A DNA stretch of 64,000 nucleotides, taken from Patescibacteria group bacterium (GTDB taxonomy: Bacteria > Patescibacteriota > Patescibacteriia > 2-01-FULL-39-33). Under the pieces are notes generated by a model. The model saw only the letters and a list, made by a program, of their open reading frames with translations, was not told the origin of the DNA and made no database searches. The stretch covers positions 23,944-87,943 of the forward strand of contig JBAZMW010000001.1 in the NCBI GenBank assembly GCA_041649575.1, in the 5' to 3' direction. The translations under genes and the position numbers were made by a program. This document shows, piece after piece, positions 13,651-48,492 of this stretch; positions within the stretch are counted from its first letter, which is position 1, and each line of letters begins with the position of its first letter.

Positions 13651-13661
13651 AACTTTAGCTT

Positions 13662-19666: not shown

Positions 19667-20602
19667 ATGGAAGGCGACCGACAGGAGGAGTCAATTTTGA
19701 GCGATAACTCGGATTTAGAGTTAAAATCCCCATACAAAAGGGGTAATTTTTCTGTTGTTGGCCGCTCAAAACCAGAAAAAATTATTTCGGTAGCGGTGGT
19801 GGTGATGATTTTGGTGGCACTTTTTTTTGCCTATTACCAGCTGGCTAGCAGTTTTAAGAAGCCTTTTGTTAATTTTAGTCAGTTGGCGGCTAGTAGTAAT
19901 ACTTCCTGTTCTGACGGCAGTTGCTCTGGAGAGAATTCGGCCTCGGAAGAAGAACTAAAAAATACTGACACAGACGGAGACGGCCTTTCTGATTATGATG
20001 AGCTAAACGTTTATAAGACCAGCCCCTACCTAGAGGATACCGATAGCGACGGCACCAGCGATAAACAGGAAGTGCAGTTGGGGTACGACCCAAACTGTCC
20101 CGGTAAGAACCCTTGTTTTGGCTTCAATTTTGATGCTGTCAGCCAAGCCGCTTCGACCACGGCGCCGTCTTTTCAGATCATGCCTAGCACCCCAGTTCAG
20201 CAAATAACTCCTGATTTTTTGCGTCAGCAGCTGAAAGCCAGCGGCGCTACCGAAGAACAATTAGCCCAGTTTAGCGATGCCGAGCTTTTGGCCATGTATG
20301 AGGAATATGTGGCCGAAACGGGGAGCCAGAATACCCAAGCGGGACAGGCCGGCAGTCAGACAAATTCTGGCGGCACTGGCACCAATAATTCTTTGCAGCC
20401 TAGCGGCAATATCGATTTAAGCCAGCTTAATGTGCAGTCGGTAGACGATCTTAAAAAATTAACAGGGGCGCAAATCAGACAACTAATGATTCAGCAGGGC
20501 GCGCCGGCCGAGACCTTGTCCCAAGTCAGCGACGACAAGCTTAAGGAAATGTTCTTGGCGCAGCTGGAGAGTAAATTAAGCGAGACAAATACTAATAAAT
20601 AA
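19667..20602 (+). CDS. secreted/membrane-anchored protein with thrombospondin-type-3-like Ca-binding repeats
   Basis: TM anchor, Cys cluster, 'DTDGDGLSDYDELNVYKTSPYLEDTDSDGTSD', then a Q/S/T-rich tail. It lies directly upstream of the giant protein gene. Confidence 0.5.
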   Translation: MEGDRQEESILSDNSDLELKSPYKRGNFSVVGRSKPEKIISVAVVVMILVALFFAYYQLASSFKKPFVNFSQLAASSNTSCSDGSCSGENSASEEELKNTDTDGDGLSDYDELNVYKTSPYLEDTDSDGTSDKQEVQLGYDPNCPGKNPCFGFNFDAVSQAASTTAPSFQIMPSTPVQQITPDFLRQQLKASGATEEQLAQFSDAELLAMYEEYVAETGSQNTQAGQAGSQTNSGGTGTNNSLQPSGNIDLSQLNVQSVDDLKKLTGAQIRQLMIQQGAPAETLSQVSDDKLKEMFLAQLESKLSETNTNK

Positions 20603-20623
20603 TTTTTTGAAGATAAATTTGCC

Positions 20624-23600
20624 ATGAATCCAGGAGAAGGAACAAAAAAGATAACGAAAAATCTATTTAACAAGGTGATAGTGGTTGGTTTTTTGTTAAG
20701 TTTTTTTATTCCAGCTTTGGTTATAGCGCAGGAGGTTGTTCCAGGAATTAGCGGCGTTAATGTGGCGGATGTGCACGATGAAAATGCTTTTAGGGTGGCT
20801 ACGGAAGGAGGGGGAGATGCTGTGATTACTTGCAATAATTTTGTCGCTGGCGGTTTGGCAACATCCGGAGATATAGCCGCTTTAATTAAATGTATAGAAA
20901 GCGGGACTAAGGCGCAAAACAAAACGGTTGACAAGAATACCCTCAAGCAACTCAAGGCCTTGGAACAAAAGCAGCAGCGTGAAGAATTGTTCAGTAAAAT
21001 GAAGGATGAGCTGAAAAAGAGCATGGCCGGCGCTTTTAAGACCATGCTACGGCAATTTTCCAAACAATTGGCTTATGACACGGCCGTTTGGGTAGCTTCT
21101 GGCGGCAAGGGGCAACAGCCGCTGTTTATGACCGAGGGTATCGGCGCTTATTTGCGAAATCAGCTAGATAATGCCCTGGGTGTGTTTTTGGACGAACTGG
21201 GCCGCTATTATGGCGTGGATGTCTGTACGCCAAATTTCCAGATTAGAGCGCTCCTGCCCGGTTATTTGGGCAGACCACAGGTGAGTGTTCGCTGTTCTTT
21301 TACTAAAATGATCAGTAATTGGCAGAGTGCGGCCCAAAATGCCAGCTTTGCCGTGGAGTACAGAAGATTTTTGAGGCCAGGAGAAAATGATATTTCTTCG
21401 CTACTAATGATTAAAACCGGTTTGAGCAACAAACTAGACCAAGAATTAAGAGATAGCGTTTTAAATGTTTTATCGAAAGATGGCTGGAAGGATGTTAAAG
21501 ATTTTGCCGGCTGGGTTTTGACTCCGGGCACCATGGTGCGCAAGGCCACCGAAAACGCCATTGATCCCCAAAATACTTCGATAGCGGACTACACCTATAC
21601 CGATACACTCTGGGATTTTATCGAAACTTTTTTGAACACGCTGACGGGAAAACTCTTAGAAAATTTAATGACTGGCTTTTTCAGCTCCGGCGGCAATACC
21701 CAAAATTTCACTACCGGTAATTCAAGCTCCAGTTTATTTAATCCTTTGGCGCAACCGTTTAGCGAGGGCCAAGAAGGAGCACAGGAAAGATTTCTGAGTC
21801 TGGTGGAGGGAAGTTTGCAGGTGGGCGGTGTTTACGATATTTTGAACAAACTGACCCAATGCCTGGATTCCAGTAAAAGCAATTTAGGGCCGACAGACTG
21901 TGTTATTGATCAGGCCCTGGCTCAAGCCATAAGAGAAAAAAAATTAGTCAAAGATTTATCCGCGGATATTTTAAATCGTCAGTTCGCTCCCTCTATCTCG
22001 GCCAACATCAATCCGCAGACAGTTTTTACCTTAAGAAATATTGTTATCTTGAGAAAATATCGAATCGTGCCTGTTGGCTGGGAAGTCGCCGCCAAACTGG
22101 TCAATGAAAAAGCCAAACAAATTTATACTTTGCGTCAGTTGATGGAGTGTTATAACGGCTGTGATCGTTTTGGCAAAGAAGAGGATTTTTGCGGCAATCC
22201 GGCCGTGGAAGACACCAGTAGCTGGTGCCGAGGACTGGTTGATCCCAACTGGGTCTTAAAGGCGCCGGAACTATTCTGCCGGCGGGAAGGATACGGGATC
22301 GAAAGCGGCGCCATTGATTCCCAGAACAGTGTCAGTCGGGATAAATATTGCGCCGACGAACAGCAATGCATCAAAGAAGATGAAAAAGGCAATTGTTTGG
22401 CCTATGGTTATTGCACCAAAGAACGCCGGACTTGGGATTTTAATTCTTCCACCTGCGACCCGAAATTCAACACTTGCTTTAATTTTAAATCGCGAACGGG
22501 AGCTGCCAACGCTTATTTGGCCAACACCCTTGATTATAGGGATTGCGACGCTCAAGTGGCTGGTTGTCGTTGGCTGGCTACGGCTTTGAATCCGGTTAGT
22601 AATTATTGGTTGAATCTAACCTATAAAACGAACGAGCTGGGCAAACCCAAGGAAGTCTTAAAGACCTGCAATAATCCTCTGGGTTGCGAGGTGACGGGAG
22701 CCAGCGCAGCTGCCGCTGTGACTTATGGCCACAACATTAGCCCCGATGCCAAAACGATCCTTTCCCAGCCCTGCAATAAAAGCGCCGGCTGTTCTTACGA
22801 AACCAGTAAGTGCACCATTCCTAACGGTGGCGTCACTTGTTCGCCAATAAAAGCAGCTTGTGACGGCCAAAATAATATTTTGGCCGGTTATAATGGCAAT
22901 TTTGCCAAATGCGCCTCTTGGAATGCGGAAAAGTGGGAAGAGGGCTGGGGCGGCTCGGAGAATAATCACCACGCTTGCGTTACTGGTGTTGGCGTGACCG
23001 GCAGTGGCATCAAAGACGACAAGGCCCTGGCCAGCTATACCCTGGGCCAGCAGGTAAGCTCGGCCTTAAGAGACATCTCGGTTGAGCCAAATAAAAAATA
23101 CATTCTGACTTTTGAAGCCAAGAAAAGCGCTCTGGATGCTTATGGTGGAGTTACTAGGGGTTCGGTTGCTGTCAAAGTGGAGTTTACCGATACCAGCGGC
23201 AAGAAGACCGATCAAGGAGTTGTCTTGGCGGCCGATGATTTGAGCGATACTGGTTATCGGACTTTTACTATTGGCAATATCAATAACGGTAATAATGACA
23301 AGTTTACCATCAAAGTGACGACCAACGCCGGTTCTTATGGCAGTTTCTATTTTGATGAATTTATTTTGCGGGAGGTGACGGAGAACTGTTTTGAGACCAA
23401 CCTGGTTTTGACTAATGGCGTTCAAACGGAAGACGACAGCAACAAGGAAATTTATTTTGACCGCGACATTCAGTCTTGCGACGCCAAAGACGAGGGCTGT
23501 AGCCAATTTATTCGCACCAAGGCCGGGTTGGGCAGCAACTTAATACCCAACAGCGGTTTTGAGATTGATGCTGGTGGCGATAATAAACCGGATGGCTGGG

Positions 23601-26600
23601 TAGAGAGAGGGCTGACCAATATTAGTCTGGACACCAACGATAAATATAAAGCCAAGATAGTTTATAGCGCCGAAGGATATGATAAATATCCACTGATACC
23701 GGTAGAGGCCGGCGAATATTATGCCATTTCCTTTGATGCCGCTCAAGCTATTAGTGGCAACAATGACGAAGCTGATTTGGAAATGATTTTTTTGAACAAG
23801 GAAGCGGACGCGATTATTGGGGCAACCGGTATAAAAATCGACAAGACAAATTGCGCCCAGACCGGAGACAACACCATTACTTTGAGAAATTTGCCTGCAA
23901 ATATGAATATGCAGAGGCAGTCTTGCTACTTTTTGGTGCCGGCCGGGGCCAGAGTTATGGGTTATAAGCTGTTTTCGGCCACCGCCAGTGGAGTTAATTT
24001 TATTGACAACATAAAATTGGAAAAAATAAATTATTTCAGCTTGAACGCCTCGGTTTATACACCCTATACGCCTTCGGAACGACCAGTAAGCCAGTTGGCT
24101 TTTGTCAAAAAGGCTCCTGCTTATTACGGCTGTTATAAAACCGGCAGTCTTTGGCCGCAGAGCGAGACTGAATTGGAAAGAGTTTTGCTTGGCCGCAGTG
24201 CGGCCTGCGCTAATTTTGCCAGCGTTTGTATCAGAGATGAAGTTGGTTGCGAACGTTATAGTCCGCTAAATAAGGATCCGGCAGTGCCGGGCAAAATCAA
24301 CGCGCTTAATATCTGCCCGGCGGAGTGTGTCGGCTACCAGCTGTATCGCAAAGAGAAAACTTATTTCGAAAGCGTAAGCTACGAAAAATTCATTGCCGAC
24401 AAAAAACCGCAGTATTGCTCGGCCGCTTACGCCGGTTGTGATGAGTTTACCAATTTAGACGAAGTGGCCAAGGGCGGCGAGAGCAGGGAATACTATTCGC
24501 AACTGCGCGTTTGTCAGCAACCGGCCGCCGACGCCAGCGATGCCACTTATTACACCTGGGAGGGCAGCGACACCACCGGCTATCAGCTAAAAACTTATCA
24601 GTTGAAAAAAAGTCAGACGGACAGCTTTGATACTAATGCTCCCTGCACTGTTTTGGATTATCCGGCCAGTTTAAATGGCAAGAACCAGTGTAATGACCTG
24701 AAAGATGACGGAACCAACAGCGTTGGTTCGGTTTCATTGCCGGCCGGCTACAGTAGTCTAAAGGGTTATTTAACGGTTTTACAGGGTTATACCGATACCA
24801 GTAGCAGCGATCCGAATTTACCCACTATTGTTAACTCGGGAATTTTGGACGAGTTGCACGAGTTTGGCATCTGCGCCAAACAAGAGCTCAACGGCATCGT
24901 TTACAATCGAGGCACGATGGATGATGCCAGTGACGATATTTACATTTATGCCAATGCCGATTGCCGCGAGTTTTATGATGGCAGCGGCCAAGTCCATTAT
25001 CGGCTGCTTTCCAAGGCAATCTTTTCTTCCAGCGAGTGCCATCCTTATCGTCGCAGCCAGGTTCAGACCGATACGGCCGAAGCCCAAGCCGATTGCCGAA
25101 ATTCCCAAGGCTATTGGAATGCTAACGGAGAGTGTATTTATATGGCGATACCCGGCCAGGGAAAGACTTGCCCTGCCAGCGCCAAGGGTTGCCGTCAATA
25201 TGTCGGCAATCAAGGCAACAACGTCCGTTTGAAGTTTTTTGATAATTTTGAGAGTAATCTGGGCGCCTGGCAAGGCGGCGGTGTTCTGGCCATGGAAGCC
25301 ACTAATCCGGGAGGCAAATCATTAAAGAAGGCGGGCGGTGGCGAGATTAGCCGGCCGGTTGCCACAGTCAAAAATAAGGCTTATATCTTAAGTTTTTGGG
25401 CCAAGGCTTCGGCCGACGCCGTTGTGCTGGATGCAATTAAATTTAAAGGAGCGGAAAATAACTCCGACAATTATTTTGCCGAAAGCGACAGCGACGCCGA
25501 CAATATCCCGCAAGCAGTTTTAAATACCACTTGGCAGAAATATGACTTAGGTCCGGTTTTTGTCACTTGGGACGAAAGAGCCGACGAAGCGCTAGAAATC
25601 AAAGCGCCGGCCGGAGTCGATGTCTTTTTTGACAACATAATTCTAAAAGAAGTTCAGCAAAACGTTTACCTGATCGCCAATACTTGGTTTACGCCTTTTG
25701 CTTGCGATAACATACTGGAAACACCCTTTGGGTCAGCCGGTGATTCCAATAATCCGACTCGTGACAGCCAAGGAGAGATGCTCGGCTGTCAGGCTTACAA
25801 TGATCGATCCGATCAACCCTGGTATTTGAAATCATTTTCCAGATTATGCCGCGAAGACGCTGTGGGTTGCGAGGCCTTAATTAATACCTTTAACTCCGAT
25901 TCTCCTTGGGGCAAGGAATTTAATAACGAAGACTTGGAAACGCATGATGACGTGACGGTCCAGAGCGATCAGGCGGTCTATTTGGTCAATGACAATCAAT
26001 ATGCTTGTCAGGCCGAGGATAAGGGTTGCACGGCTTTCGGCTTGCCCAGCGTCACCAAGTATGACGAAACAATAGGTTACAGCACTGTGTATTTGGAAAA
26101 CGTTCCTGACCGTTATAGCTTTGATCTGTGCCGTTACCAAAATTTATGGTGCGAGGAATTCTCCAGTGCCGATGCCCGCGAACTGTCTTATTTTAAGGAT
26201 CCCAGAGACAAGCTGTGCGAGTACACCGCGATTTCCGGCAAGAATTACAGCAACTGGTATGCCAAAGGGACTAATAATCCCTGTCTGACCACCGCCACGC
26301 AAACGATTGGTCTGGGTTCGGCCGATGAGAAGCGGCAGCCAATCGGCTGGTATGACAATAAAACAGAGACGGAGGTGGCGGATTATAAGGGTTGGGCCGG
26401 CCTGTGTCCGGCCGAGCAGAGCTCTTGCACCGAATATATCGATCCGCTGACCGAGGTTTATGAGGGTCTCTTTAATAAGGAGGAAAACAGTTTCAAAAAC
26501 TGTGCCGGCGAAACTCCAGGAGCCGAGCAAAACAATTGCGGTTATTATGTGTTAGAACTGGAGGACGAAAATCTTTATACCATCTCGATCAAGAGAACCA

Positions 26601-29600
26601 GCTCCGGCAATGTCGCCACCCAGCTAGTTTGCGATAATGAAATTTGGTCGCCGGATAAGAGTTTGGATGTGTCTGGCTCTAGTAAATTAATTTTAAACAG
26701 AGACAACGTCGGCGGCGATAAGCAGGTTAGCGGTAGATTTTATCTGGAAAGTACCGGCGCCGGCCAGGCCAGAGTCAATTGTCGCATTTACGATCCTGGT
26801 TTTGACGGCGAAGAGATCGAAGTGGTTAAGGCCGGGGTTTATTATCAATTGGCCAAAGCGGTCAATCGCGCCGCCTGCAACGGTTTGGTGGATATAGATA
26901 GCGGTTGCGTTTTGTTCAATGAGAGAGGAGAGATGAATTACTCCAAGCAGGGCGTGGAGAGAGTCCGCGATTATCTTGACTTTGACGCCGATGAAACTTT
27001 CAATTTGCAAATCAAAGCTGCCAGTAAAAATCCACAGCCGCCATTTTCAGCGATTTTGCCAGGCCAAAAAAATTCTAATTCGATCATTAAAGTGTCGCCA
27101 GACAGGGAATGCAGCGGCTGGCTGTTTTGCACCACTTACGAAAAAGCCAATCCCGAAGATACGGATTTGGCCTTTGGCAGTCAGGATAAGTGTTTGGAAA
27201 TAGGCCTCTGCAGTCGCTTTGATAGCAAGGGAAATTGTTTGAAATATTCGCTGGGCAAAAAAGAAGCCCTGTCTACCAGCACCCCCGATTTTCAAAACTT
27301 AACGGGATACTCCATCAGCGGTTATTACCCGACAGATCTGATGGAACAAATCGGCAATGCGGCCAACTTGCCCAATGGTAATTTTGAATCAACTTACTCG
27401 GGAACCAAAGAACCTCTTGGCTGGTATATCGGCGGCAGTCATTATGATTCGGACAACATCAAACAGCCAGGACAAGTCAGCGGCTGGGGCGATTATCGTT
27501 TTAGCATCGAACGGGATTCTGCCAATCGTAGGGAAGGCTCTGGTTATTTAAAATTAAACGGAGCCTATGAGGCCGAATCGGAACTGGTAGATGTTTTCCC
27601 CAATGTTGATTACACTATTTCGGCCTGGGTAAACACGCTTAACCTGCAGCCCACTTCGACGCAAGCGGAAATTCTGGTCAGGGAGCTAAACGCCAGTGGC
27701 AATACTATAAAAAATTCCAACTGCTCGGCCGTGGCCGGCTGTTATGAAGTCAAAATCAATGGCATCTCCTGGTCTTTGTATGGCGGACTGAAATTAAAAG
27801 CCGGCCAGCCCTGGCTTAGAGTCAACCAGCGGATAAAAACTATGCCGGAAACTTCAAGATTGCAAATTAAACTGTTAAATTTTCTTAGTAGCCAGGATTA
27901 TGTAAATTGTCGCGACCAGAACGCAGCCACCTATTGCAAAACGGGGGGCTACACTTTCTTTGACGATTTACAGATAAACGCCGCCCTGAAAGTTAATGAC
28001 AAAGAGAACATAAAAAGAGACTGTCGCGCTTATCCCGAGCAGGATTCATTGGCCTGTCGGTATTTCAAAGATAATCAGTTTTTTTATGGCTGGTCCGGCT
28101 ACTGCCTGACTTATGATCCGCTAAACTCTCGTTCCTGTCTGCAGTGGTGGCCGGTCGACAATATAAAAGGGGAAGTGGAGGACGAGGTTTCCGGTTATGA
28201 CAACAGAGTTCCTTTGTATTATTGTCTGTTAACCGAATTTGAAAGAGAATTGAAAGAAGTAAGTACCGATGTGATACAGGTTCAGGAAGCGGTCGGCGGC
28301 GCTATGCCGGTTGCCTCTCAGGCCCAAGGAGTGGCGGGAACAATTTTGGATTTTTTAGAATTCATTCTTAATATTGTGGGCGATGTCTTTCTGGGCGGAA
28401 CTAATAGCGGAACAATCATAACCGACCTGATAGCCGGCGGCTTGCAGACTTTTGCCGGCATTGATGTCGGGTCGAGCGGCTCTTCGTCTTCAAAATCGAA
28501 TATGCCTCAATGCGAAAGACTAAGCTTTGAGGATTTGAAATTCGATCCGACCACAAAAAGCTTGAATTCCTGGGTTGCCAGTATCACCGGGAATAATTCC
28601 AGAAACGTCGATGCCAAGTATCTGAAGCCGATAAGTTTGTATAATGTAGTCTATATCACCCTGGATACCGGCTATGGCGGCGGCGGCGGCGTGGAATGCG
28701 AAGATCAGGGCGGGCATAATTTACAAAAAGTAAAATACACGGAAAATTTTATTCTTAGAGGTCTGTATAAATTGGTTGTCGGCGGTACTAGCAGTATAAC
28801 TACCGAAGATTATGGTTATGTTTCTCCTGGCGATGGTACGGCCGGCCTGGATTATAGCGACAAGACTTATTGCGCGGGTTTTGTGACCTTTTTTGACAAA
28901 GACGAGAACGGTCATCGCAAAGGAGAAATAAAAAACATGATAGCCTGCGCTCAGGATACAGGGGAGTACACCCATCAGGACACCTTTAACTTTAAGTTTA
29001 AGATAGGCTACATGACAGACAAGCAGGGCCCGGCTTGCCAAATATTGGCTCAAGTGGTGACTCCGATGGGCAATAACAAGGCTTGGAGCAGAAGGGTGGC
29101 CAAGGGCAGTATTTTCACTATGCCTGGTCTTGGCACTTCGTATAATTCCGATTATCCTCCTTATGGCGCGGTGGTGCCGCCGGAGCCGGCGCATTATCCC
29201 GAGGTTTGGGATACCGACTTAACTCAAAAAGATAAGCAAAAATTATATCATTCCGCGCCGGAACTGGAAAGCCAAAAGCCCTATCAGGCCAGGGCGGGAG
29301 AAGTGTTTAGTTGCGTCAATTATGTCAATGATTTGCCAGGTTATGATGGAACAATGGGAGCGTTAAGAAGTATTTTTGGAGTCGCTTCCAGCTGGGCTTA
29401 TAAGGTGCCTTGTTTTGAGGGCTGCCTGAAAGGCATCAGAACCGACAATGCCTGGCAGGGACTAACTTCCATAACCCAGTCGGTGCTGTGTGTTTGGAGA
29501 CATTGCACCAACGCCTGCAATTTCATCGGCCGTTGCAGTCAGTCGGGCAGTGTTTGTGTCAACTACAACGGCTTTGGCGATGATATTTTGGGTATTGATT

Positions 29601-32221: not shown

Positions 32222-32257
32222 GTTTTATTTTTTTAAATAAGCGAGGTTTTTAAAAAA

Positions 32258-35200: not shown

Positions 35201-35449
35201 ACTAGCAGAAGCGAGGCAGGCGGTGTCGGGCCGGGCGGCGCTTTGCAGCCTGATTTGCAAAGAGAAGCGGCTGCCAACGCCAATTTTTTCAGGTTGCTGC
35301 AAAGCTTGAGAGAAATCGAAAAAGGCGTAGCTGGCTTGGGGGACAAAGAAGCAAAAGATGCTGTCGGCGTGGTGGTCGGGCTGGGGTCAGATCCAGTGCC
35401 TTTGGACGCCCAAGTGACGGCCGAGACTGTTAAAAATTCTTTAAGTTAA
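32258..35449 (+). CDS. VirB6/TrbL-like polytopic membrane protein with long Gly-zipper and coiled-coil C-terminal region
   Basis: Signal peptide, then 7 or more TM helices in the first ~370 aa. The 'GWRIVRDICNNFFIVILLV' region resembles the TrbL/VirB6 core. This is followed by Gly-zipper segments (GAAVHGAGGAALGATIGGVAGGVIGI…) and a charged C-terminal domain. Confidence 0.5.
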   Translation: MTVRRKKLILIITVVLFLAGIFLLSSNISFAQETNSDSNINGNISSDSDVEADTNINADYNPKPAENAGAPANDGKIAGFINWILYYVASFFGWLVGLIVNVLVNKVVVFNDFLNVRLVKEGWRIVRDICNNFFIVILLVIAVGTILRVPNYQYKQLLPKLLIMAVLINFSKMITGVLIDFFQIIMVFFGGALVKENAAGVILASVGLYKLYLLGQNPGGQILGNENLQDWDITIALFFAIVISIVACVAIGVTMIILVYRIVMLWILVILSPAAYFLSSFPKGQQYAGMWWSQFASNLVVGPVLLFFLYLSFFSGYRDVGGVENTRGGTVTIPSSATTPEELKKSAKEARTDTGQKGYITGSTNSLMATDQGFFDYLIIIALMIAGLAVAQKAGAAGGQWAGKGVASLQKWGKRAAKLPLGAAKYTAKETGRKVAGILSYETKSGKRLPFIGQWAGDIKTKMEDDIVKRRTAIMKKIGMGDKTKEWIAGKKEDFKKARYQVSGRLVQAPVGAAVHGAGGAALGATIGGVAGGVIGIMTANPLLALGGAKAGAWIGGAMGGFGGILGGLGKKPLQFTVKAAELDTKTVKNAKRKADALNDTTVPVGGTDESGLIEARSSWKNTGAYIGAGGILSKENKKMLDNINDDGLAHLSQAIDAEIDPTKKSDLKEAFTKMLAAYKKGGGSNLSTIQSFLGGGRNVLGISETAHMDPLIAANKVDVASRRTGTEKFREQRGDLKVARFSHLKDNTEAGVDFRDLFEGNSELLSQIKAQQPDFDISQSGIHIEGKEMTQKVSQAMAVLIDKELASLSHNSAIASTGQKEQIGRRMGTLRTAREQLTSGRLQQLQLWNSGLENETGEAATTIFHERIHKAGVKSEVKAEEGARFIRERHLAGLHEEIAREMVAMEGERGGDDYTMDEVMARVKEKHGTKDKVKRLIAREQEAGVAPGKTGAKEPKPTKTITEAPELERAIQELTEALTKTSRSEAGGVGPGGALQPDLQREAAANANFFRLLQSLREIEKGVAGLGDKEAKDAVGVVVGLGSDPVPLDAQVTAETVKNSLS

Positions 35450-35452
35450 ATT

Positions 35453-36388
35453 ATGGCTAATAATTACATTGCCGAATGTTTGACAAAATTTAGAGCCCTG
35501 CCTCGAGAAATCCAGGAGGCGGTGGGCGGTTTTGAGGCCTTGAAAACCATTCAGGGCCTGGAAGAGACCCATAGAATCAAGCTGGGGCTGATGGTCATTT
35601 TAGTGGCGATTGGCGAATTAAAAATGGAGGAAATAGAGGATTATCTGATGGAAAAGTATAATTTTGGAAAATGGGAAGCGCAGGAGATCAATGAGATTTT
35701 ACAGCAAAGCATTTTTGAACCGGCTCTTGAAGTTGCTTTGGCAACAATGCCTTTAGCCGGCCAGTCTGGACGAGATTTAAGTTTGCCCGAGCAGAAGAAA
35801 ATTTTGACTGATTTATTCAGAGAAAGACTAAAAGAGGTCTTAACCGGCGATGGTGAGCTGGTTCAAGAAGTAAACGATATGATTTTTGATATTTTGGGTC
35901 GGGAAATGGGCGACGAGAATAAAATGTTTGAAAAAGATTTGGAAAAAATTCTCTATCTCAACCAAGAAAAATTGACCAGTCAGAGCATTAATATCGACGG
36001 CCGGCCTCTCGAGCCCACGGTGGCTAATTGGCTTAGGGATTTTATTAATAGAAACGGCACTGCATTTTTTTCCAACCTGGTTTTGTCGCAATATCTGGCC
36101 AACTCGGAAAACGGCAACCGTTTGAATCAAGGAGAAAAGATGCTTCTGGGCAAATTGTTGGTTTTGTATCGCAATTTAAAATTTTTTCCAGACAACCTGA
36201 CTAATTTGCCCCGAAACCAATGGGAGATCATTCCCATTAGCCGCCATAAGTCCGAGCCAATAGCTTCGGCTGGCGCTGCCGCTGGCGGCAGCAGAGCTGT
36301 GCCCCAAGAAGAGCCCTCTCCGGCTTGGCAGGGGCTGTCGGCGATAGAAAAGAAAGCTTTAATGGAAGAGGAAAGTTCCAGAAAATAG
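35453..36388 (+). CDS. hypothetical protein, paralog A (shares N-terminal ~80-aa domain with next gene)
   Basis: N-terminus 'F.ALP.EIQEAV.GFEALKTIQGLEETHRIKLGLMVILVAIGELK' aligns with the N-terminus of ORF 36417. There are no TM segments. Confidence 0.45.
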   Translation: MANNYIAECLTKFRALPREIQEAVGGFEALKTIQGLEETHRIKLGLMVILVAIGELKMEEIEDYLMEKYNFGKWEAQEINEILQQSIFEPALEVALATMPLAGQSGRDLSLPEQKKILTDLFRERLKEVLTGDGELVQEVNDMIFDILGREMGDENKMFEKDLEKILYLNQEKLTSQSINIDGRPLEPTVANWLRDFINRNGTAFFSNLVLSQYLANSENGNRLNQGEKMLLGKLLVLYRNLKFFPDNLTNLPRNQWEIIPISRHKSEPIASAGAAAGGSRAVPQEEPSPAWQGLSAIEKKALMEEESSRK

Positions 36389-36416
36389 CCAAAAGAATCG
36401 GAGAAATAAAAATTTT

Positions 36417-37886
36417 ATGGATTCTAGTTTACAAAAATTCAATCAGTTGCCGGTTTTCGTCAAAGAAAAATTGTCAGCGCTAGCCGTTTTGAAGGCGGTG
36501 GAAGAATTGGAAAAAAAATACCGGATAAAACTGGCTTTATCGCTTATAAAAATGGCGGTGGGCGATTTGACCATAGCCGATTTTAGCAGTTATTTGACTA
36601 ATGTTTCAAAACTAGAGGCCGGTTCGGTCAGAGAAATTAGCCAAAAATTCAAAGAATTTTTGGCTGAAGCGGGGTTAAGAGTCAGCGAAGTTGAAAGGGA
36701 AGCCGCTCTTGGCCGGCCAGCCAGGGAAGCAGTGTTTGCTTTTTCCACTGAGGACGAACATGAGGTTGATAATTTCAGACAATTGGCCGATAGCGGAGAA
36801 AAAATTCACGATCATGATTATTTGGCCGGCGTAGTTATATCGCGGTTTGGCTTTTTGGAAACCGATGAAGTCATAAAAAAAAGATTGCATAATATCGTGA
36901 CAGCCCGGTTAAGAGATATAAGAGACGATTTGGAAACCCTGGAGAGTCTGCAAAAAAGTCGTAAAATCGGAGGTTTGGGTTTTACCGAGGAACAGAGCCG
37001 TCGCCTGCTGGGCTTGATAAAAAATGGCATAAGTGGCCAATGGCCGAAAAATTCGCCAAACGTCAAAGAGCCGGAGACTTCGGGGCGTGAACCCAGTGCT
37101 TCAGTGGCGGCTTCGTCAAAAGCGGAATTAGAAAAAAAAGTTTTGACTTTGCAAGAAAAGAAAAAGCAGGAAGAGACTTCGGTCGGTGCCGGAGACTATC
37201 CGAAGGTCAGAGATTCTTTGGCCGCCAAAGCGCTGGATTTATTGACGGATAAACGGCCAATCTCTCAAAGAGGGGGCAGGCCGCGAATTGAAGAAGAAGA
37301 CGGATTGCCGGTGGTAGTTTTGCCGGAGGAAGAGGAATTAATGATTAAGCCGCTAGTGATTGATTTACAAAAAAAACCTCGAGGCAAGGTAGAAATTAAA
37401 GAGCCGCAGTTACCGCCAAAAGCGTCGGAAAATATCAAAGCTTTCAGACCGCTGGGGCCTCAACCCAGCCCCTTTGCCAGTCCGCGGCCGGTGGTTAAAA
37501 AGGTTTTTAAAACCAGTCTTAGCAGTCGGCCGAATTTGGACGATGTAAAATTTGCTCCCAAGTTGATGGGGCCGGTAGAAGAGCTGGAGAGCATGACTCT
37601 CATTGATTTTCGTCGTTTAGGCCAGGAGCCGAAAGAAATCGCTCGCAAAATCAAAGAAAAAATCGATTTGCTAGAAAACGAATCTTATAGCAAAAAACTT
37701 GAAGGAGTCGAGGCCTGGCAGAAAAACGAGGTCAACAGGTTTTATCGTCTTTTGGGTCAGGCCAGTCTGGCGGCGGGGCAGGGCATTGAAGAGATAATCA
37801 GCGAGCGGCTGGCCAGCGGCAAGCCGACTCTGACTGTCGAGGAATTCGAATCGGTGATGGAGCTTAACAAAGATTTGCGTTTCTAA
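36417..37886 (+). CDS. hypothetical protein, paralog B
   Basis: N-terminus 'FNQLPVFVKEKLSALAVLKAVEELEKKYRIKLALSLIKMAVGDL' is paralogous to ORF 35453. The rest is charged, P-rich and disordered. Confidence 0.45.
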   Translation: MDSSLQKFNQLPVFVKEKLSALAVLKAVEELEKKYRIKLALSLIKMAVGDLTIADFSSYLTNVSKLEAGSVREISQKFKEFLAEAGLRVSEVEREAALGRPAREAVFAFSTEDEHEVDNFRQLADSGEKIHDHDYLAGVVISRFGFLETDEVIKKRLHNIVTARLRDIRDDLETLESLQKSRKIGGLGFTEEQSRRLLGLIKNGISGQWPKNSPNVKEPETSGREPSASVAASSKAELEKKVLTLQEKKKQEETSVGAGDYPKVRDSLAAKALDLLTDKRPISQRGGRPRIEEEDGLPVVVLPEEEELMIKPLVIDLQKKPRGKVEIKEPQLPPKASENIKAFRPLGPQPSPFASPRPVVKKVFKTSLSSRPNLDDVKFAPKLMGPVEELESMTLIDFRRLGQEPKEIARKIKEKIDLLENESYSKKLEGVEAWQKNEVNRFYRLLGQASLAAGQGIEEIISERLASGKPTLTVEEFESVMELNKDLRF

Positions 37887-37919
37887 TAATTAATTTTTTT
37901 GTTAAGATAAGTATAAGCC

Positions 37920-38366
37920 ATGGAACAAATAGTAGTACCACAATTTTTAGACGTCGAAGACAAGATTATCGGTCCGATAACCGTGCGTCAGTTTATCGAA
38001 ATGATGATTGGCGGTTTGCTTTGCTTCATCTTTTATAAACTGTTTGATTTTTCACTTTTTGCTGTGGCTTCGCTCTTGGTGATTCTGGTCACTCTGGTCA
38101 TCGCTTTTGTCAAAATAAACGGCCAACCCTTTCATTATTTTTTGTTGAATTTTTTTGGCACCGTCAAAAATCCCAAATTGAAAGTTTGGCGCAAAGACGT
38201 GACGCTGGCCGATATCAGGGCGCTAGAGGCCAAACAGCCGGTGACCAAGCCGCCAACGGTGGCGGGAACAAGGCAGATACTCACCACTTCCAAAATATCG
38301 GAGCTGTCTTTGATTGTTGATACCGGCGGTGTCTATCGCGGCGAGGAAAAGCTAGCTATTAAATAA
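37920..38366 (+). CDS. PrgI-family (VirB3-like) small membrane protein
   Basis: 'VPQFLDVEDKIIGPITVRQFIEMMIGGLLCFIFY' matches the PrgI-family N-terminal motif (VP.d..vkdkiffGLT.RQf). It is followed by two TM helices. It sits immediately upstream of the VirB4-family ATPase, as in Gram-positive T4SS operons. Confidence 0.55.
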   Translation: MEQIVVPQFLDVEDKIIGPITVRQFIEMMIGGLLCFIFYKLFDFSLFAVASLLVILVTLVIAFVKINGQPFHYFLLNFFGTVKNPKLKVWRKDVTLADIRALEAKQPVTKPPTVAGTRQILTTSKISELSLIVDTGGVYRGEEKLAIK

Positions 38367-38379
38367 TTTATTTAGTTTT

Positions 38380-39063
38380 ATGGCTTCAAGAGTAGCTAAT
38401 AAAAAAACCCCAGCCACCCAAAGGCATCTACATATTGTAGAAGTCAGAGACGATTGCGTGGTAATGAAAGACGGCAGCTTAAGAGCCGTACTGCTGGTGT
38501 CGAGTATAAATTTTGCCCTGAAGTCAGAGGACGAGCAAAATGCCATCGTGGCCGGTTATATGTCGTTTTTGAACTCTTTGGATTTTCCAATTCAGATGGT
38601 GGTGCAGTCCCGGCAACTTGATTTGGATGAATATCTGGCGGAAATAAAAAATGCCGAAGACAACCAGACCAATGAGCTGCTAAAGTTGCAAACAGCGGAA
38701 TATCGCCAATATATCACGGAACTGGTTTCGCTGGGCGATATTATGACCAAAAGATTTTTTGTGATCATACCTTATGACCCTCTGTCCAACAAAAAACGGA
38801 CTTTTTGGCAGAGAACGACCGACGTTTTGTCGCCAACCAGCATTATTAATTTGAAAGAGAAGCAATTTATCAAACGAAGAGAGGATTTGTTGTTGAGGAT
38901 CGACAAGGTGATTTCCGGATTGTCCAGTATGGGACTAAGAGCGTCGCTATTAAATACCCAGTCACTAATAGAGTTGTACTACAGCACCTACAATCCGACG
39001 ATTTCCAGAAGCGAGAAAATGGTTGATACTAATAAATTAAGAATCGAAGAAAATTTTTTATAA
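38380..39063 (+). CDS. VirB4-family N-terminal region (separated from the ATPase ORF by a single in-frame TAA)
   Basis: 'DGSLRAVLLVSSINFALKSEDEQNAIVAGYMSFLNSLDFPIQMVVQS' resembles the extreme N-terminal segment of Gram-positive VirB4/TraE/PrgJ homologues. It is in the same reading frame as ORF 39067; the stop at 39061-63 is followed by the ATG at 39067. Confidence 0.5.
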   Translation: MASRVANKKTPATQRHLHIVEVRDDCVVMKDGSLRAVLLVSSINFALKSEDEQNAIVAGYMSFLNSLDFPIQMVVQSRQLDLDEYLAEIKNAEDNQTNELLKLQTAEYRQYITELVSLGDIMTKRFFVIIPYDPLSNKKRTFWQRTTDVLSPTSIINLKEKQFIKRREDLLLRIDKVISGLSSMGLRASLLNTQSLIELYYSTYNPTISRSEKMVDTNKLRIEENFL

Positions 39064-39066
39064 AAT

Positions 39067-40971
39067 ATGTTTGACCCGAAAGACTTAGACAAAAAAAACG
39101 ATTTAATTACTCCAACTGTCGAACCGGAGATAAAATTAAGTGCGGAGCAGTTAAACCGGCAAGAAGCGCAGGAGCTGGGAAAAACCAAAGAAAGCCTGGA
39201 AGAAGAGATTGTCTATCGCCGCGGGGCGATGACCATTCGTGACTTGGTGGCGCCGGCGGCTTTGGAGGTGGAAAGCTCTTTTGTCAGATTGGGCGAATAC
39301 TATGTCACGACGATTTTTGTCGTGCAGCTGCCGCGCTATATTAATGTTGGCTGGTTTGCGCCGGTGATAAACCTGGATATTACCGCCGATATGGCGCTGT
39401 ATTTTTACCCGGTTAAATCAGCGGTTATTTTGAAGCAATTAAAAAAGAAAGTCGGTAATGTCGAGGCGGGACTGATCGCCGACGCGGAAAAAGGCGCTCC
39501 GCGCGATCCTTTAAGGGAGACGGCTTTAAGGGATATGGAAAGACTGCGCGACGAACTGACCCAAGGCACGGAACATTTCTTTCAGACCGGCACTTATATA
39601 ACAATTTACGCCAAGAGTTTGGAAGAGCTCGACAAAATCACGGAACGGGTGGAAAACATTTTTGGCTCAACCCTGGTTTTTTCCAAACGGGTTTTTTATC
39701 AAGCCGAACAGGGGTTCAACTCAACCATGCCTTTTGCTTTCGATGAATTGCAGGTTTTGGTAAATATCAACACTTCGCCGGCCGCCAGCTCTTTTCCTTT
39801 TGTTTCTTCGGATTTGACTTCCGATCGCGGCGTGCTTTTTGGCATTAATCGCCACAACAATAGCTTGATTTTATTCGATCGGTTTTCTTTGCAGAATGCC
39901 AACATGGTGGTGTTTGCCACCTCTGGCGCTGGCAAATCCTACGCCATCAAGCTGGAGGTTTTGCGCAGTTTGATGTTTGGCACCGACATTATTATTATCG
40001 ACCCGGAAAGAGAATACAGTCACTTATGCGATGCGGTGGGCGGGACTTATATTGACATTTCTTTGAACTCGGAAAGCAAGATTAATCCTTTCGATTTGCC
40101 TCGGGCGATTGGCGAGGACGCGAGGCCAGCCGATATTATCAGGAGCGCAGTGATTACGGTAAAAGGATTAATTAGATTAATGATCGGCGACATTGACACC
40201 GAGGAAGACTCCATCATTGACCGAGCGCTGCTGGAAACTTATGCCAAGAAAGACATCACTCCCGATGTTGATTTGACACAAATTGAGCCGCCGATTTTGT
40301 CGGACTTACAGGAAGTTTTGGAAGGCATGGAGGGAGCGGAAAAAATCTCGATCCGGTTAAAGAAATATACGGAAGGCACTTTCGCCGGCTTGTTGAACAA
40401 TCCAACCAACGTGGAAACCAATAATCAACTGGTGGTTTTCAGCGTCCGTGATTTGGAAGACGAATTAAAGCCCATGGCTATCTATACGATTATCAATTAT
40501 ATTTGGAATATCGTCAGAAGCCAGATGAAGAAAAGGATTATGATTGTCGACGAGGCCTGGTGGCTGATGCAGCGCGAGGATAGCGCCAAGTTTATTTTTG
40601 CTCTGGTAAAACGGTGCCGTAAATATTACCTGGGCGTGACCACCATTACCCAAGATGTTAACGATTTTTTGACTTCTCCTTACGGTCAGGCAATTGTCAA
40701 TAATTGTTCGCTGCAGCTGTTAATGAAGCAGACGCCGGCAGCCATTAATTTGGTGCAAAAAACCTTCATGTTGACCGAAGGAGAAAAATATTTGCTTTTG
40801 GAGTGTGGCGTGGGCGAGGGTATATTTTTTGCCGGCGCCAAGCACGCTGCCATAAAAACGGTCGCTTCCTATTCCGAAGATCAATTAATAACCTCTGATC
40901 CGCGCCAGCTGCTAGAAATCGAACAAGCCAAAAAGGAATTTGAGGAATCACTTGCTGCCGGGCAAGTCTAG
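39067..40971 (+). CDS. VirB4/TraC/PrgJ-family type IV secretion ATPase
   Basis: Walker A is 'VVFATSGAGKSYAIK', the Walker B-like motif is 'IMIVDEAWWLMQ', and there is the typical 'YYVTTIFVVQLPRYINVGWFAPVINLDITADMALYFYPV' N-domain. Confidence 0.75.
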   Translation: MFDPKDLDKKNDLITPTVEPEIKLSAEQLNRQEAQELGKTKESLEEEIVYRRGAMTIRDLVAPAALEVESSFVRLGEYYVTTIFVVQLPRYINVGWFAPVINLDITADMALYFYPVKSAVILKQLKKKVGNVEAGLIADAEKGAPRDPLRETALRDMERLRDELTQGTEHFFQTGTYITIYAKSLEELDKITERVENIFGSTLVFSKRVFYQAEQGFNSTMPFAFDELQVLVNINTSPAASSFPFVSSDLTSDRGVLFGINRHNNSLILFDRFSLQNANMVVFATSGAGKSYAIKLEVLRSLMFGTDIIIIDPEREYSHLCDAVGGTYIDISLNSESKINPFDLPRAIGEDARPADIIRSAVITVKGLIRLMIGDIDTEEDSIIDRALLETYAKKDITPDVDLTQIEPPILSDLQEVLEGMEGAEKISIRLKKYTEGTFAGLLNNPTNVETNNQLVVFSVRDLEDELKPMAIYTIINYIWNIVRSQMKKRIMIVDEAWWLMQREDSAKFIFALVKRCRKYYLGVTTITQDVNDFLTSPYGQAIVNNCSLQLLMKQTPAAINLVQKTFMLTEGEKYLLLECGVGEGIFFAGAKHAAIKTVASYSEDQLITSDPRQLLEIEQAKKEFEESLAAGQV

Positions 40972-40998
40972 CTTTTAACTTTTTAAATTAATAATTTT

Positions 40999-41568
40999 AT
41001 GGACAACAAAAGAAGAATAGTCATAGTCGTTTTGGCAATAGTAGTGTTGATAATTCTAGTGATAATCTGTTGGTGGATTTTGAAAAATAATTTTGGTCGC
41101 CAGGGCACAGTCAACTTGAATACCAATGTTAACAGGCCGTTGACCGAGAGAATCCAACAATTGCCGCCGCCGACCGCCGAAGAAATAGCCGAGGAAAAAA
41201 AATACCCCCTAGGCATGAAGCAACTGGCCTATTCTTTTGCCGAAAGATTTGGTAGCTATTCCAACTTGACAGTCAACAAAAATCTAAACGACTTGAGAGG
41301 TCTGATGACCGTTAAGATGCAAGCAGAAACCGATAAAGTGATTGACCAGACCTTTACGGCGCCAGCCAGTTATGATGGTTATGATACCAGGGCCTTAGAG
41401 AGCGAACTTTTGTATCTAAAAGACAATGAAGCCAGTATTTTAATTAAAACGCAAAGATCTCACTATTTAGAAAAGGAAAGTCAGCCAGAAGTTTATTATC
41501 AAAATTTACAGCTTAAAATGGTAAAAGTGGGCGAAGAATGGAAGATTGACGAGGCCAAGTGGCAGTAG
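40999..41568 (+). CDS. bitopic membrane protein, possibly VirB8-like (N-terminal TM plus ~140-aa periplasmic/extracellular domain)
   Basis: The single TM is 'IVIVVLAIVVLIILVIICWWIL' and the soluble domain is of NTF2-like size. The position directly after VirB4 matches PrgL/VirB8 placement. The call rests on topology only. Confidence 0.3.
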   Translation: MDNKRRIVIVVLAIVVLIILVIICWWILKNNFGRQGTVNLNTNVNRPLTERIQQLPPPTAEEIAEEKKYPLGMKQLAYSFAERFGSYSNLTVNKNLNDLRGLMTVKMQAETDKVIDQTFTAPASYDGYDTRALESELLYLKDNEASILIKTQRSHYLEKESQPEVYYQNLQLKMVKVGEEWKIDEAKWQ

Positions 41569-41598
41569 GGAGCTCTTTTAAATTTAAGAAGAAATTTA

Positions 41599-42273
41599 AT
41601 GTTTGAAGATATTGGGCAGATAAAGGGTTGGCTGGAGGATTTGTTGTTTCCCAAGAGTTGTGTTAATTGCCGACAGGAGAAGAGCTGGCTTTGCGGTGAA
41701 TGTACAAAATTATTAAAGGCCGTTGCGATGAATTTGGGCTCTCATGTTTTTGACAGCGGTAATCATTTAGAAAAATTATGGGCTTTGACCGATTATAACG
41801 ATCTGCTGGCGCAAAAAGTGATTCAGGCCATTAAATATAATTTTATTAAAGAGTTGGTTTGTAGCTTCGACAGTCTGATTGTGGAAATGGAAAAGATAAT
41901 ACCCGCCTGGTCTAGGGAATTCGTTTTATTGCCGGTTCCTCTGCACCAGAAACGTCTCTCCTATCGAGGATTTAATCAAGCGGAATTAATCAGCGAGAGA
42001 ATAAGCCGGCTACTAGGCAACCCTTTAGGCGACAAAATTTTAAAGAGAAAAATTTATACCAGGCCACAGGTTGGTCTAAGCCAAGCGAAGCGCCGGGAAA
42101 ATATCAAAGGAAGTTTTTTATTGGATAATAAAGTCGAGTGGCGCTTCCCTAGAAATAATGTGGTTTTGATTGACGATGTCTACACGACCGGAGCGACAAT
42201 GGGGGAGTGTGCCGAAGTTTTACAAAAGGCAGGATTTACAAACATCAAAGGACTGGTAATAGCTCATGGTTGA
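41599..42273 (+). CDS. comFC: ComF family protein (ComFC-type phosphoribosyltransferase-domain competence protein)
   Basis: N-terminal Zn-finger 'CVNCRQEKSWLCGECTKLL' and C-terminal PRTase motif 'VVLIDDVYTTGATMGECAEVL'. Confidence 0.7.
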   Translation: MFEDIGQIKGWLEDLLFPKSCVNCRQEKSWLCGECTKLLKAVAMNLGSHVFDSGNHLEKLWALTDYNDLLAQKVIQAIKYNFIKELVCSFDSLIVEMEKIIPAWSREFVLLPVPLHQKRLSYRGFNQAELISERISRLLGNPLGDKILKRKIYTRPQVGLSQAKRRENIKGSFLLDNKVEWRFPRNNVVLIDDVYTTGATMGECAEVLQKAGFTNIKGLVIAHG

Positions 42274-42776: not shown

Positions 42777-42863
42777 GGAGAGGTGGCAGAGTGGTCTAAT
42801 GCACCGGTCTTGAAAACCGGAGTCCCTTTACGGGGACCGTGGGTTCGAATCCCACCTTCTCCG
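42777..42863 (+). tRNA. tRNA-Ser (anticodon UGA)
   Basis: Acceptor GGAGAGG…CTTCTCC, anticodon loop CTTGAAA, long variable arm, T-loop GTTCGAATC. Confidence 0.85.
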
Positions 42864-42893
42864 TTTGGCAATAAATTTATAAAATTAGAAAAT

Positions 42894-47706: not shown

Positions 47707-48492
47707 TTATTTTAGGTAACATTGGCAGGAGTAAGTATTAATGGTGTCTCCATTTTTTGGGGCGTGGGTGTAGACCAGGTTAGCGTATCTTTCAGAGCAC
47801 CAAGAGAAGCAGAGTTGATCGGCGGCCTCCTGACTGTTAGCTTTAATGTCGGTGGGGCCATTACGATAATTCAGAGTAGTCGCTTTGTCACGGCAAAAAC
47901 AGGACCATAAATTAGGACTACTGCCTTGCTCTACACGTTCAAACTCCTGGTTGTTGTTAGAACATTGGTTTTGGCATTGTTTTTCGGCTTCTTCTTTACT
48001 ACCGGTAGAAGCTAAGCCGACTGGCTGGGTGCTGGCAGTGGGGGTTGTAACACTGTCTAAATGCGGCATCGTTATCACTGTCAGCTTGGGATTGATCAAA
48101 TACAAAATAGTGAAAGACAAAAAAGCCAAGACCAGACCAATCAAGGCGGAGATAATAATCTCTTTGGCCTGTCCGATCTCGGAACTATTGCCTCGAGAAG
48201 CCAGCCACTTGAATCCGCCCCACATCACCATCACCGCCGCCAAGACTCCCACGGCGCCGATGATTAGACGATACCAAATATTAAAGTAAGTGCCCAAGAT
48301 GTTAGCATCGGTGACATTAAATTCTTTGGCCATATTGCCGAGAGGCACATTAAGGCAAACTTTTCCTGCTGGGCAAGAGCCGGCGGCTCCGGAGGCGGCT
48401 GCCGGAGTTTCTCCGGGGGTAGCTCCCAAAGCCAGAAGAGGAGCAGTAAAAAACAAGACAACCAAAAATAAGATTATTATATTTTTTTTCAT
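47707..48492 (-). CDS. secreted protein with TrbC/VirB2-pilin-like membrane module and Cys-rich C-terminal domain
   Basis: Signal peptide, then the module 'LIIGAVGVLAAVMVMWGGFKWLASRGNSSEIGQAKEIIISALIGLVLAFLSFTIL' (hydrophobic-WGG-basic-hydrophobic, pilin-like), then a C-terminal 8-Cys domain. Confidence 0.45.
   Translation of the reverse strand: MKKNIIILFLVVLFFTAPLLALGATPGETPAAASGAAGSCPAGKVCLNVPLGNMAKEFNVTDANILGTYFNIWYRLIIGAVGVLAAVMVMWGGFKWLASRGNSSEIGQAKEIIISALIGLVLAFLSFTILYLINPKLTVITMPHLDSVTTPTASTQPVGLASTGSKEEAEKQCQNQCSNNNQEFERVEQGSSPNLWSCFCRDKATTLNYRNGPTDIKANSQEAADQLCFSWCSERYANLVYTHAPKNGDTINTYSCQCYLK
48058..48269. repeat. 212-bp direct repeat copy A (~99 % identical to 49110-49321)
   Basis: Aligned by eye, there are 3 mismatches over 212 bp. 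It encodes the shared pilin-like TM module of the two adjacent paralogs. Confidence 0.8.

Follow-up and report, generated by a model that had tools for sequence, protein, structure and literature searches.

Type IV secretion systems (T4SSs) of Patescibacteria were surveyed by Quinonero-Coronel et al. (2025), who described a Patescibacteria-specific VirB4 clade related to MPF_FATA, with adjacent TrsD, PrgI/VirB3, VirB6 and VirB2-like pilins (PMC12102498). VirB8 homologues are rare in Patescibacteria and occur mostly in class ABY1, while the T4SSs of this clade are accompanied by almost no relaxases or nearby type IV coupling proteins (T4CPs), most t4cp homologues lying far from virB4 (PMC12102498). 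The ABY1 T4SS neighbourhood includes comF, recG and radA, with KsgA as a frequent neighbour, and no adhesins such as PrgB were detected (PMC12102498). In Saccharibacteria, Southlakia epibionticum depends on its T4SS to grow as an epibiont (Wang et al. 2023, PMC10633639), and its pilin arrays are essential as well (PMC12102498, PMC10633639). Here we analysed a 64,000-nucleotide stretch from a Patescibacteria group bacterium (assembly GCA_041649575.1, contig JBAZMW010000001.1, positions 23,944 to 87,943; hereafter the window), in which ten co-directional open reading frames (ORFs) of the + strand fill positions 19667-42273 and join the genes of such a T4SS to that of a giant, cysteine-rich protein with a carbohydrate-binding module (CBM). 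We consider it likely that this locus is a chromosomal, vertically inherited T4SS of a class-ABY1 Patescibacterium, derived from monoderm conjugative MPF_FATA machinery, with the giant protein as its contact element. The giant protein may thus be the missing adhesin of the ABY1 T4SS.

The window matches the published ABY1 layout point by point, and its core is therefore an already described kind of system. As in the ABY1 T4SSs (PMC12102498), a FATA-like VirB4 is found with an adjacent TrsD, PrgI/VirB3, VirB6, a VirB8-like protein and nearby pilins, no relaxase or T4CP gene lies beside virB4, ksgA is located upstream, and comF, recG and radA are located downstream. Our first-pass annotation of this DNA had correctly recognised a Gram-positive-type T4SS core, here an MPF_FATA-related one in a Patescibacteria genome, but had overestimated the novelty of the system, since the ABY1 T4SS with its comF/recG/radA neighbourhood had already been published (PMC12102498). 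The linkage to the giant protein is what is newly observed. In the literature, supplementary tables aside, we found no account of a giant Cys-rich or CBM protein beside this T4SS, nor any mention of the TSP3 plus giant module, of X311 and X489 (two soluble proteins encoded between the VirB6-like and PrgI/VirB3-like ones), of the HExxH module on the extended VirB6 or of the pilin-lysozyme fusion. The giant proteins of Patescibacterium danicum, which carry fibronectin type III/FhaB domains and exceed 5000 aa (PMC11809585), appear to be a different family, set apart from this one by annotation only.

A scan with the VirB6-like profile, in which each species was represented by a single genome, gave 540 confirmed matches, from which 80 loci were kept and the window proteins mapped onto them. 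Database proteins identical to those of the window carry the NCBI name 'Patescibacteria group bacterium'. The relatives that carry the locus are metagenome-assembled genomes of Buchanan-, Falkow- and Komeilibacteria, and the order that recurs is [KsgA]-TSP3-giant-VirB6L-X311-X489-PrgI-TrsD-VirB4-VirB8L-(ComF or RadA). Linkage was counted in the 57 genomes whose upstream flank is 9 kb or longer: in 47 of them a giant homologue (2000-3300 aa, 2.5-5.5 % Cys) is encoded no more than 10 kb upstream of the VirB6-like gene, and in 23 no more than 1 kb, so that the pairing of giant protein and T4SS, proposed earlier from the window alone, is real and conserved across species. On the other side, where the downstream flank is 9 kb or longer (60 genomes), it includes VirB4 in 52. 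The genes for the TSP3, giant and VirB6-like proteins also stay together where the VirB4 module is absent within 10 kb (loci L003, L048, L073 and L076) or displaced about 8 kb downstream (L042 and L071), and an X311-like gene comes next after this trio in L003, L048 and L071. Gene identities, gene order and the conservation of the linkage across species were directly observed.

The giant protein contains 134 Cys (3.5 %), with recurring C-x5-6-GC-x2-[FY] motifs, and a single transmembrane (TM) segment that forms an N-terminal signal/anchor at aa 18-36. CBM_4_9 scored above the Pfam cutoff in this protein and in three relatives. When aa 1-1200 were compared by phmmer with 1.84 billion cluster representatives, at least 1239 family members were retrieved at E <= 1e-3, nearly all of them 2000-3900 aa long; conservation in the family peaks at aa 100-655, the N-domain (~aa 100-655), and at aa 1400-2500. 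A whole-length phmmer search against PDB sequences gave no match. Nothing comparable to the C-terminal ~560 aa (aa ~3300-3865, window 30524-32221) occurs in 131 full-length representatives of the family, and it is inside this genome-specific extension that the densest Cys segment of the protein is found (11 Cys in aa 3601-3700). In one relative, P0261, a MopE-type metal-binding motif occurs close to the C-terminal end. The TSP3 (Ca-binding repeat) protein has one TM segment (aa 39-57), and a homologue of it is encoded upstream of the giant gene in at least 21 related loci, a count limited by the 10-kb flank. Farther downstream in the window, the gene of a DsbA-like thioredoxin (Thioredoxin_4 4e-28, DSBA 6e-18) overlaps at its start the 3' end of the pilin-lysozyme gene by 4 nt, and its product may oxidise Cys-rich exported proteins.

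Table 1. Genes of the T4SS locus and of the nearby pilin cluster, in window coordinates.
Gene product	Position	Strand	Length	Profile match or basis
TSP3 protein	19667..20602	+	311 aa	PF18884 (TSP3_bac) E 2.7e-8
Giant Cys-rich CBM_4_9 protein	20624..32221	+	3865 aa	CBM_4_9 E 2.8e-8
Extended VirB6/TrbL-like polytopic membrane protein	32258..35449	+	1063 aa	Family-level Pfam matches
X311, soluble protein without assigned family	35453..36388	+	311 aa	Conserved cluster member
X489, soluble protein without assigned family	36417..37886	+	489 aa	Conserved cluster member
PrgI/VirB3-like small membrane protein, 2 TM	37920..38366	+	148 aa	PF12666
TrsD-like protein, detached VirB4 N-terminal domain	38380..39063	+	227 aa	NF041427, VirB4_plasma, PF26593
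VirB4-family ATPase, CD1110/MPF_FATA type, without N-domain	39067..40971	+	634 aa	NF045971
VirB8-like bitopic protein	40999..41568	+	189 aa	Predicted fold
ComF(C)-family protein, zinc ribbon + phosphoribosyltransferase (PRTase) domain	41599..42273	+	224 aa	TIGR00201, GntX, DZR_2, Pribosyltran
VirB2-like T4SS pilin, Cys-rich C-terminal extension	47707..48492	-		PF18895
VirB2-like T4SS pilin fused to lysozyme-like domain	48507..49688	-		PF18895, PHROG 2083
DsbA-like thioredoxin	49685..50407	-		Thioredoxin_4, DSBA

The ten genes of the run (Table 1) are separated by intergenic gaps of 21, 36, 3, 28, 33, 13, 3, 27 and 30 nt, that is 3-36 nt and not the 4-40 nt given earlier. Every ORF named in the first-pass annotation is present on the + strand at its coordinates; the list of nine genes had left out the TrsD-like ORF, with which they are ten. 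The run is presumably co-transcribed. A promoter and terminator scan of 30-43.6 kb, of a kind that is uninformative for this organism type, gave no convincing intergenic terminator.

At the centre of the locus, the PrgI, TrsD and VirB4 genes are contiguous, and the VirB3 and VirB4 assignments made earlier hold by direct profile matches (PrgI, P-loop_TraG, NF045971). The PrgI/VirB3 protein, with two predicted TM segments, matched PF12666 at E 1.3e-8 (35.7 bits, cutoff 27), and VirB4 matched the CD1110 family NF045971 at 8e-101 (338.5 bits, cutoff 325) and P-loop_TraG at 3.6e-29. The TrsD-like ORF matched NF041427 TrsD (2.3e-8), the TraC-like family PF26593 and VirB4_plasma (3.5e-11), aligning to positions 104-233 of the latter VirB4 profile. 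In one related locus (L022:15501-18143) the TrsD-like and VirB4 parts form one fused ORF of 881 aa, which supports the reading of TrsD as a detached VirB4 N-domain; the pair is split in the window, as it is in 58 further loci.

Directly after virB4, the product of 40999-41568 is supported as a VirB8-like protein with an N-terminal TM segment and a predicted extracytoplasmic NTF2-like domain, an identity first given as putative and now backed jointly by the predicted fold, the bitopic topology and the place in the locus. The protein, whose family counts 694 homologues, had no Pfam or NCBIfam match. Its AlphaFold2 model (pLDDT 89) has a helix at aa 3-32 followed by three helices and a four-stranded sheet, NTF2-like in arrangement. 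Foldseek comparison of this model with the PDB retrieved CagV (2e-4, TMt 0.68) and PrgL (3.5e-4), as well as R388 TrwG, A. tumefaciens VirB8, TraE, TraH, TcpC, IcmL and TraM, the E values for CagV, PrgL, TrwG, VirB8, TraH, TcpC and IcmL ranging from 2e-4 to 5e-3. Among 18 proteins of the enterococcal plasmid pCF10 compared by hhalign, PrgL was the sole specific and best match of the VirB8-like profile (P 8e-4). The hhalign matches to PrgL/VirB8 had P values of 8e-4 to 4.5e-3 with a probability of 8-24 %, and PrgL reached E 2.1 in the comparison of the profile with PDB sequences.

The 1063-aa protein encoded ahead of X311 is accepted as VirB6-like at the family level only, which is also how far the earlier VirB6/TrbL assignment can be followed. 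The family comprises 325 homologues, all named ones being from Patescibacteria, and PF04610 (TrbL/VirB6) was matched by 15 of 30 homologues, with a best E of 1e-8. There are about 7-8 TM helices in aa 90-390 and a glycine-zipper region at aa ~500-570; the N-terminal membrane domain of ~400 aa is conserved and the C-terminal ~500 aa are variable. When the profile was aligned by hhalign to the 18 pCF10 transfer proteins, PrgH was the longest and best match (P 0.025, 144 columns). Matches of the same profile to PDB sequences (TIM44, apolipoproteins) were rejected as noise, caused by coiled coils or low complexity in the C-terminal domain. A K/R-rich stretch after the last TM segment suggests that this C-terminal domain is cytoplasmic. 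The HERIH sequence that it contains at aa 866-870 (nt 34853-34867) belongs to a conserved HExxH module found in 32 of 120 VirB6-like homologues (P0002-P0110), whose two His and one Glu do not vary and which also has a G at +4/5 and an E at +9. The module gave no profile match, and it may be a zincin-like metal site.

Between the VirB6-like and PrgI genes lie X311, which has no TM segment, and X489, which is likewise soluble and consists of an N-domain shared with X311, a Pro-rich linker and a conserved C-terminal part of ~100 aa. The two had been taken for paralogues; their homology is real and is confined to the N-terminal ~77 aa (36 % identity, E 2e-11). X311 follows the VirB6-like gene in 56 of 83 loci and X489 stands directly upstream of prgI in 64 of 83. 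Neither profile matched PDB sequences, Pfam, PHROGs or the 18 pCF10 transfer proteins, and X311 had no NCBIfam match either. Both proteins sit where substrate-recruitment factors might sit.

Several observations weigh against the giant protein as the contact element of this T4SS. In 24 of the 57 genomes the giant gene is parted from the VirB6-like gene by housekeeping genes (MetRS and others), and in 10 of the 57 no giant homologue is found within 10 kb, ATP synthase, GroEL or MacB genes being located upstream instead. The linkage could be a matter of inherited synteny rather than function. The giant protein shows no LPxTG motif nor any other recognised wall anchor. The AlphaFold2 model of its aa 1-700, computed from a 40-sequence alignment, had a pLDDT of 60 and a pTM of 0.37 and gave no Foldseek match at E <= 1, so that nothing in this low-confidence model ties the N-domain physically to T4SS parts. 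As for the channel itself, the window's VirB6-like protein alone did not match PF04610 TrbL, and in Foldseek the VirB8-like fold also resembles NTF2 proteins from outside T4SSs, e.g. ARC6/PARC6. A further suspicion, that a T4CP might be encoded between the giant and VirB6-like genes of Falkowbacteria-type loci, was discarded: the proteins in question are MetRS, Por_Secre_tail, ATP synthase, GroEL, HlyD-like and MacB-like proteins. The Por_Secre_tail protein, of 412 aa and with a type IX secretion-type C-terminal sorting domain, is encoded in one Falkowbacteria genome (L020:5156-6391) and is unexpected in a monoderm Patescibacterium.

Two VirB2-like pilin genes are located on the - strand 5.4-7.4 kb downstream of the cluster and 6.7-8.7 kb from virB4. 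Both products matched PF18895 above its cutoff of 26.6 bits, the first with E 7.4e-9 (36 bits) and the second with 1.4e-9 (38 bits). The second carries a lysozyme-like domain, matching PHROG 2083 'internal virion lysozyme motif' at 4e-12 (aa 242-349), endolysin phrog_7 at 1.4e-5 and, weakly, Pfam (E 0.0076). A lysozyme (VirB1-like) fusion had been recorded at this place; the lysozyme-like domain is indeed present, and the partner to which it is fused proved to be a VirB2-like T4SS pilin, with the other pilin gene adjoining. From its sequence, the fusion could be a candidate for the wall-cutting function of VirB1. The two pilin genes share a core of 239 nt with 95 % identity (window 48050-48288 and 49102-49340), which encodes an identical segment of ~73 aa (LIIGAVGV...MPHLDSV), and their N- and C-terminal parts are unrelated, a Cys-rich tail in one and the lysozyme-like domain in the other. 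This suggests that the pilin core was recently duplicated or gene-converted and that the 'payload' domains were swapped.

These pilins bear on the possibility that the T4SS is a machine for assembling VirB2-like pili and/or for passing proteins to the surface or interior of the host bacterium, the giant protein being unrelated cargo or an independent adhesin. Two nearby pilin genes with divergent C-terminal domains, one of them lysozyme-like, would fit such an exporter, as would the essential pilin arrays of S. epibionticum, and the authors of the saccharibacterial work favour protein export or an alternative role, as relaxase and coupling proteins are absent. Yet we identified no effector candidates, and the giant protein and the pilins have Sec-type N-termini, which means that passage through the T4SS is not needed for them. 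As an account that detaches the giant protein from the channel, export appears to us possible though doubtful; it is in any case largely compatible with, and not exclusive of, the contact role that we favour for the giant protein.

The last gene of the run encodes a protein with the zinc ribbon plus PRTase architecture of ComF (DZR_2 at aa 14-41, Pribosyltran at aa 184-219), which matched TIGR00201 at 5.6e-32 (111 bits, below the trusted cutoff of 233) and GntX at 1e-24. Its position, 30 nt after the VirB8-like gene, and the presence of recG and radA within 6 kb could suggest a DNA-uptake machine, in which the T4SS imports host or environmental DNA and ComF, RadA and RecG process the incoming single strand, by analogy with ComB of H. 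pylori and with Ced. The lack of relaxase and T4CP matches among the window ORFs searched would agree with such a function, and the association of ABY1 T4SSs with comF, recG and radA has been noted before (PMC12102498). Moreover, T4SS-mediated acquisition of nucleotides or DNA was proposed, as a published speculation, for Saccharibacteria (PMC11665869). However, this neighbourhood is the sole evidence for uptake, and among 83 related loci the gene next after the cluster is comF in only 17 (radA in 31). Moreover, comF, radA and recG belong to the housekeeping recombination machinery of a small genome with strong synteny. The match to CedB, a marginal P-loop one, reached 42 bits against a cutoff of 700, with CedD at 17 bits, and no locus protein matched VirB9 or VirB10. 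Besides, competence of S. epibionticum needs comEC and type IV pili, and deletion of comEC is viable although the T4SS is essential (PMC12857230, PMC10633639), which indicates that the essential role of the T4SS in that species is not ComEC-dependent uptake. We therefore regard a DNA-uptake machine as unlikely. Of the two functions offered earlier, DNA import and cell-cell contact, we favour contact as a proposal and treat DNA import as speculation from the gene neighbourhood only.

A bolder variant would make the TSP3 protein, the giant protein, the extended VirB6 with its HExxH module and X311/X489 an ABY1-specific 'contact and recruitment' module that turns the T4SS into an importer of host DNA or other macromolecules, processed by ComF, RadA and RecG. 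We give this variant little credence, less than DNA uptake as such. If true, such an importer module would give monoderm bacteria their first T4SS-based uptake system and Patescibacteria the nutrient-acquisition route that has been missing.

The genes around the locus bear on whether it is an ordinary or decaying integrative conjugative element. Upstream, on the + strand, a TrmB-like regulator, LemA, a TPM-domain protein, FemAB, a major facilitator superfamily transporter, an acyltransferase and KsgA are encoded, and farther upstream leucyl-tRNA synthetase (LeuRS), UvrA and pyruvate:ferredoxin oxidoreductase. Downstream come three tRNA genes and RecG, followed on the - strand by RadA, the two T4SS_pilin genes, the DsbA-like thioredoxin, a beta-propeller protein, an unidentified protein, ClpB and an M48 peptidase. 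The membership of VirB4 in the conjugative CD1110 family, the presence of PrgI and TrsD, typical of Gram-positive conjugative elements, and the tRNA genes just downstream, as possible integration sites, could point to a mobile origin. Nevertheless, no T4CP, relaxase or integrase profile (Pfam) was matched among the 43 window ORFs searched, which comprise every non-nested ORF of 135 aa or more, with two exceptions, and in addition two shorter ORFs; the two excepted, 2450-2881 (143 aa) and the frame 42783-43406 (called product 170 aa), are both too short for a T4CP or a relaxase. The earlier remark that no VirD4 coupling protein or relaxase is visible thus holds for these 43 ORFs within the 64-kb window. 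The GC content of the locus is only slightly above that of its flanks, and flanking by LeuRS, UvrA, KsgA, RecG, RadA and ClpB marks it as chromosomal, not mobile. The same chromosomal position and neighbours recur in ~80 species, which indicates vertical inheritance. With no integrase, relaxase or T4CP match in the window and with this conserved synteny, we rejected the conjugative element, which we hold to be very improbable.

Other features of the flanks are recorded here in their own right. The ORF 42783-43406 starts inside tRNA-Ser(TGA) (window 42777-42863), and the called gene starts later, at about window 42894, and encodes 170 aa. In the LeuRS (window 7024-10326, + strand, 1100 aa), an alpha/beta-hydrolase domain (Ser_hydrolase PF06821, E 6e-17) is inserted at aa 550-718. 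Ahead of this insert, the synthetase catalytic and editing-domain profiles match as far as aa ~394, and behind it, at aa 947-1062, lies the anticodon-binding domain. On the - strand, window 10417-12035 holds two overlapping ORFs of 351 and 188 aa without Pfam match, with a GC of 0.53 against ~0.43 around, a 2-kb stretch ~10 points higher. There are two LemA genes, one in 13038-14555 (+), followed by the TPM-domain protein, and one in 55574-57156 (-), which adjoins the M48 peptidase. After the latter pair, three consecutive + strand ORFs without Pfam match (444, 1006 and 603 aa, window 57301-63517) may be a further envelope module.

Returning to the giant protein as contact element, we propose the following arrangement. 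By homology, the VirB6-like protein, PrgI/VirB3, the split VirB4 (TrsD plus ATPase) and the VirB8-like protein would form the membrane channel, and the VirB2-like pilins and the pilin-tethered lysozyme-like domain would act outside the membrane. The genes upstream would add a lineage-specific accessory module, composed of the TSP3 Ca-binding membrane protein and the giant, presumably Sec-exported and disulfide-rich CBM protein. The latter would serve in contact or adhesion, in the role that PrgB/PrgC have on pCF10. We picture its conserved N-domain close to the membrane and adjoining the channel, and its distal part, which carries the CBM, attached to glycans of the host cell wall; the TSP3 partner, and possibly the DsbA-like enzyme, might assist the giant protein. 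In this manner the giant protein would keep epibiont and host together during the transport of macromolecules by the T4SS across the interface between them. That the giant protein physically associates with the channel, and that it mediates adhesion, is what we infer from the conserved linkage and the domain content. The giant protein is in any event a concrete host-contact candidate, for a T4SS that is essential in the sole genetically tractable species and for which the 2025 survey found no adhesin. The locus leaves the classification of these systems unchanged and supplies targets for structural and genetic work, among them the split VirB4, the VirB8-fold protein, X311 and X489, the HExxH module and the pilin-lysozyme fusion.

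Besides the ABY1 T4SSs, several known systems resemble this locus in part. In F-type systems, a Cys-rich surface protein and an 'extended VirB6' (TraN and TraG) are encoded together with thiol-disulfide oxidoreductases in the T4SS locus; TraN and TraG, the mating-pair stabilisation proteins, are diderm outer-membrane proteins. ComB of H. pylori and the archaeal Ced system are likewise derived from T4SSs and devoid of relaxase and T4CP, and both are linked to DNA uptake, although ComB is a diderm system with VirB7/9/10 and of the Ced components only the marginal CedB P-loop match was seen here. The prgQ operon of pCF10 from Enterococcus faecalis differs from the window locus in having the T4CP PcfC, the relaxase PcfG, LPXTG adhesins and the PrgK hydrolase gene between VirB4 and PrgL, and in its undivided VirB4 and absence of pilins; conversely, the window locus has a split VirB4, a VirB6-like protein four times longer, pilins, and two soluble proteins between VirB6 and VirB3. 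Aligned by hhalign, the X311, X489, VirB8-like and VirB6-like profiles did not match PrgA, PrgB or PrgC. The likeness to pCF10 lies in the channel and in its order: the VirB4 proteins belong to the same NCBIfam family, CD1110, and in hhalign the VirB8-like and VirB6-like profiles align best with PrgL and PrgH, respectively. In pCF10, adhesin genes are followed by VirB6-like PrgH, VirB3-like PrgI, VirB4 PrgJ and VirB8-like PrgL, with the adhesin genes prgA/B/C directly upstream of the channel genes prgD-L, as the giant protein gene stands upstream of the channel genes in the window.

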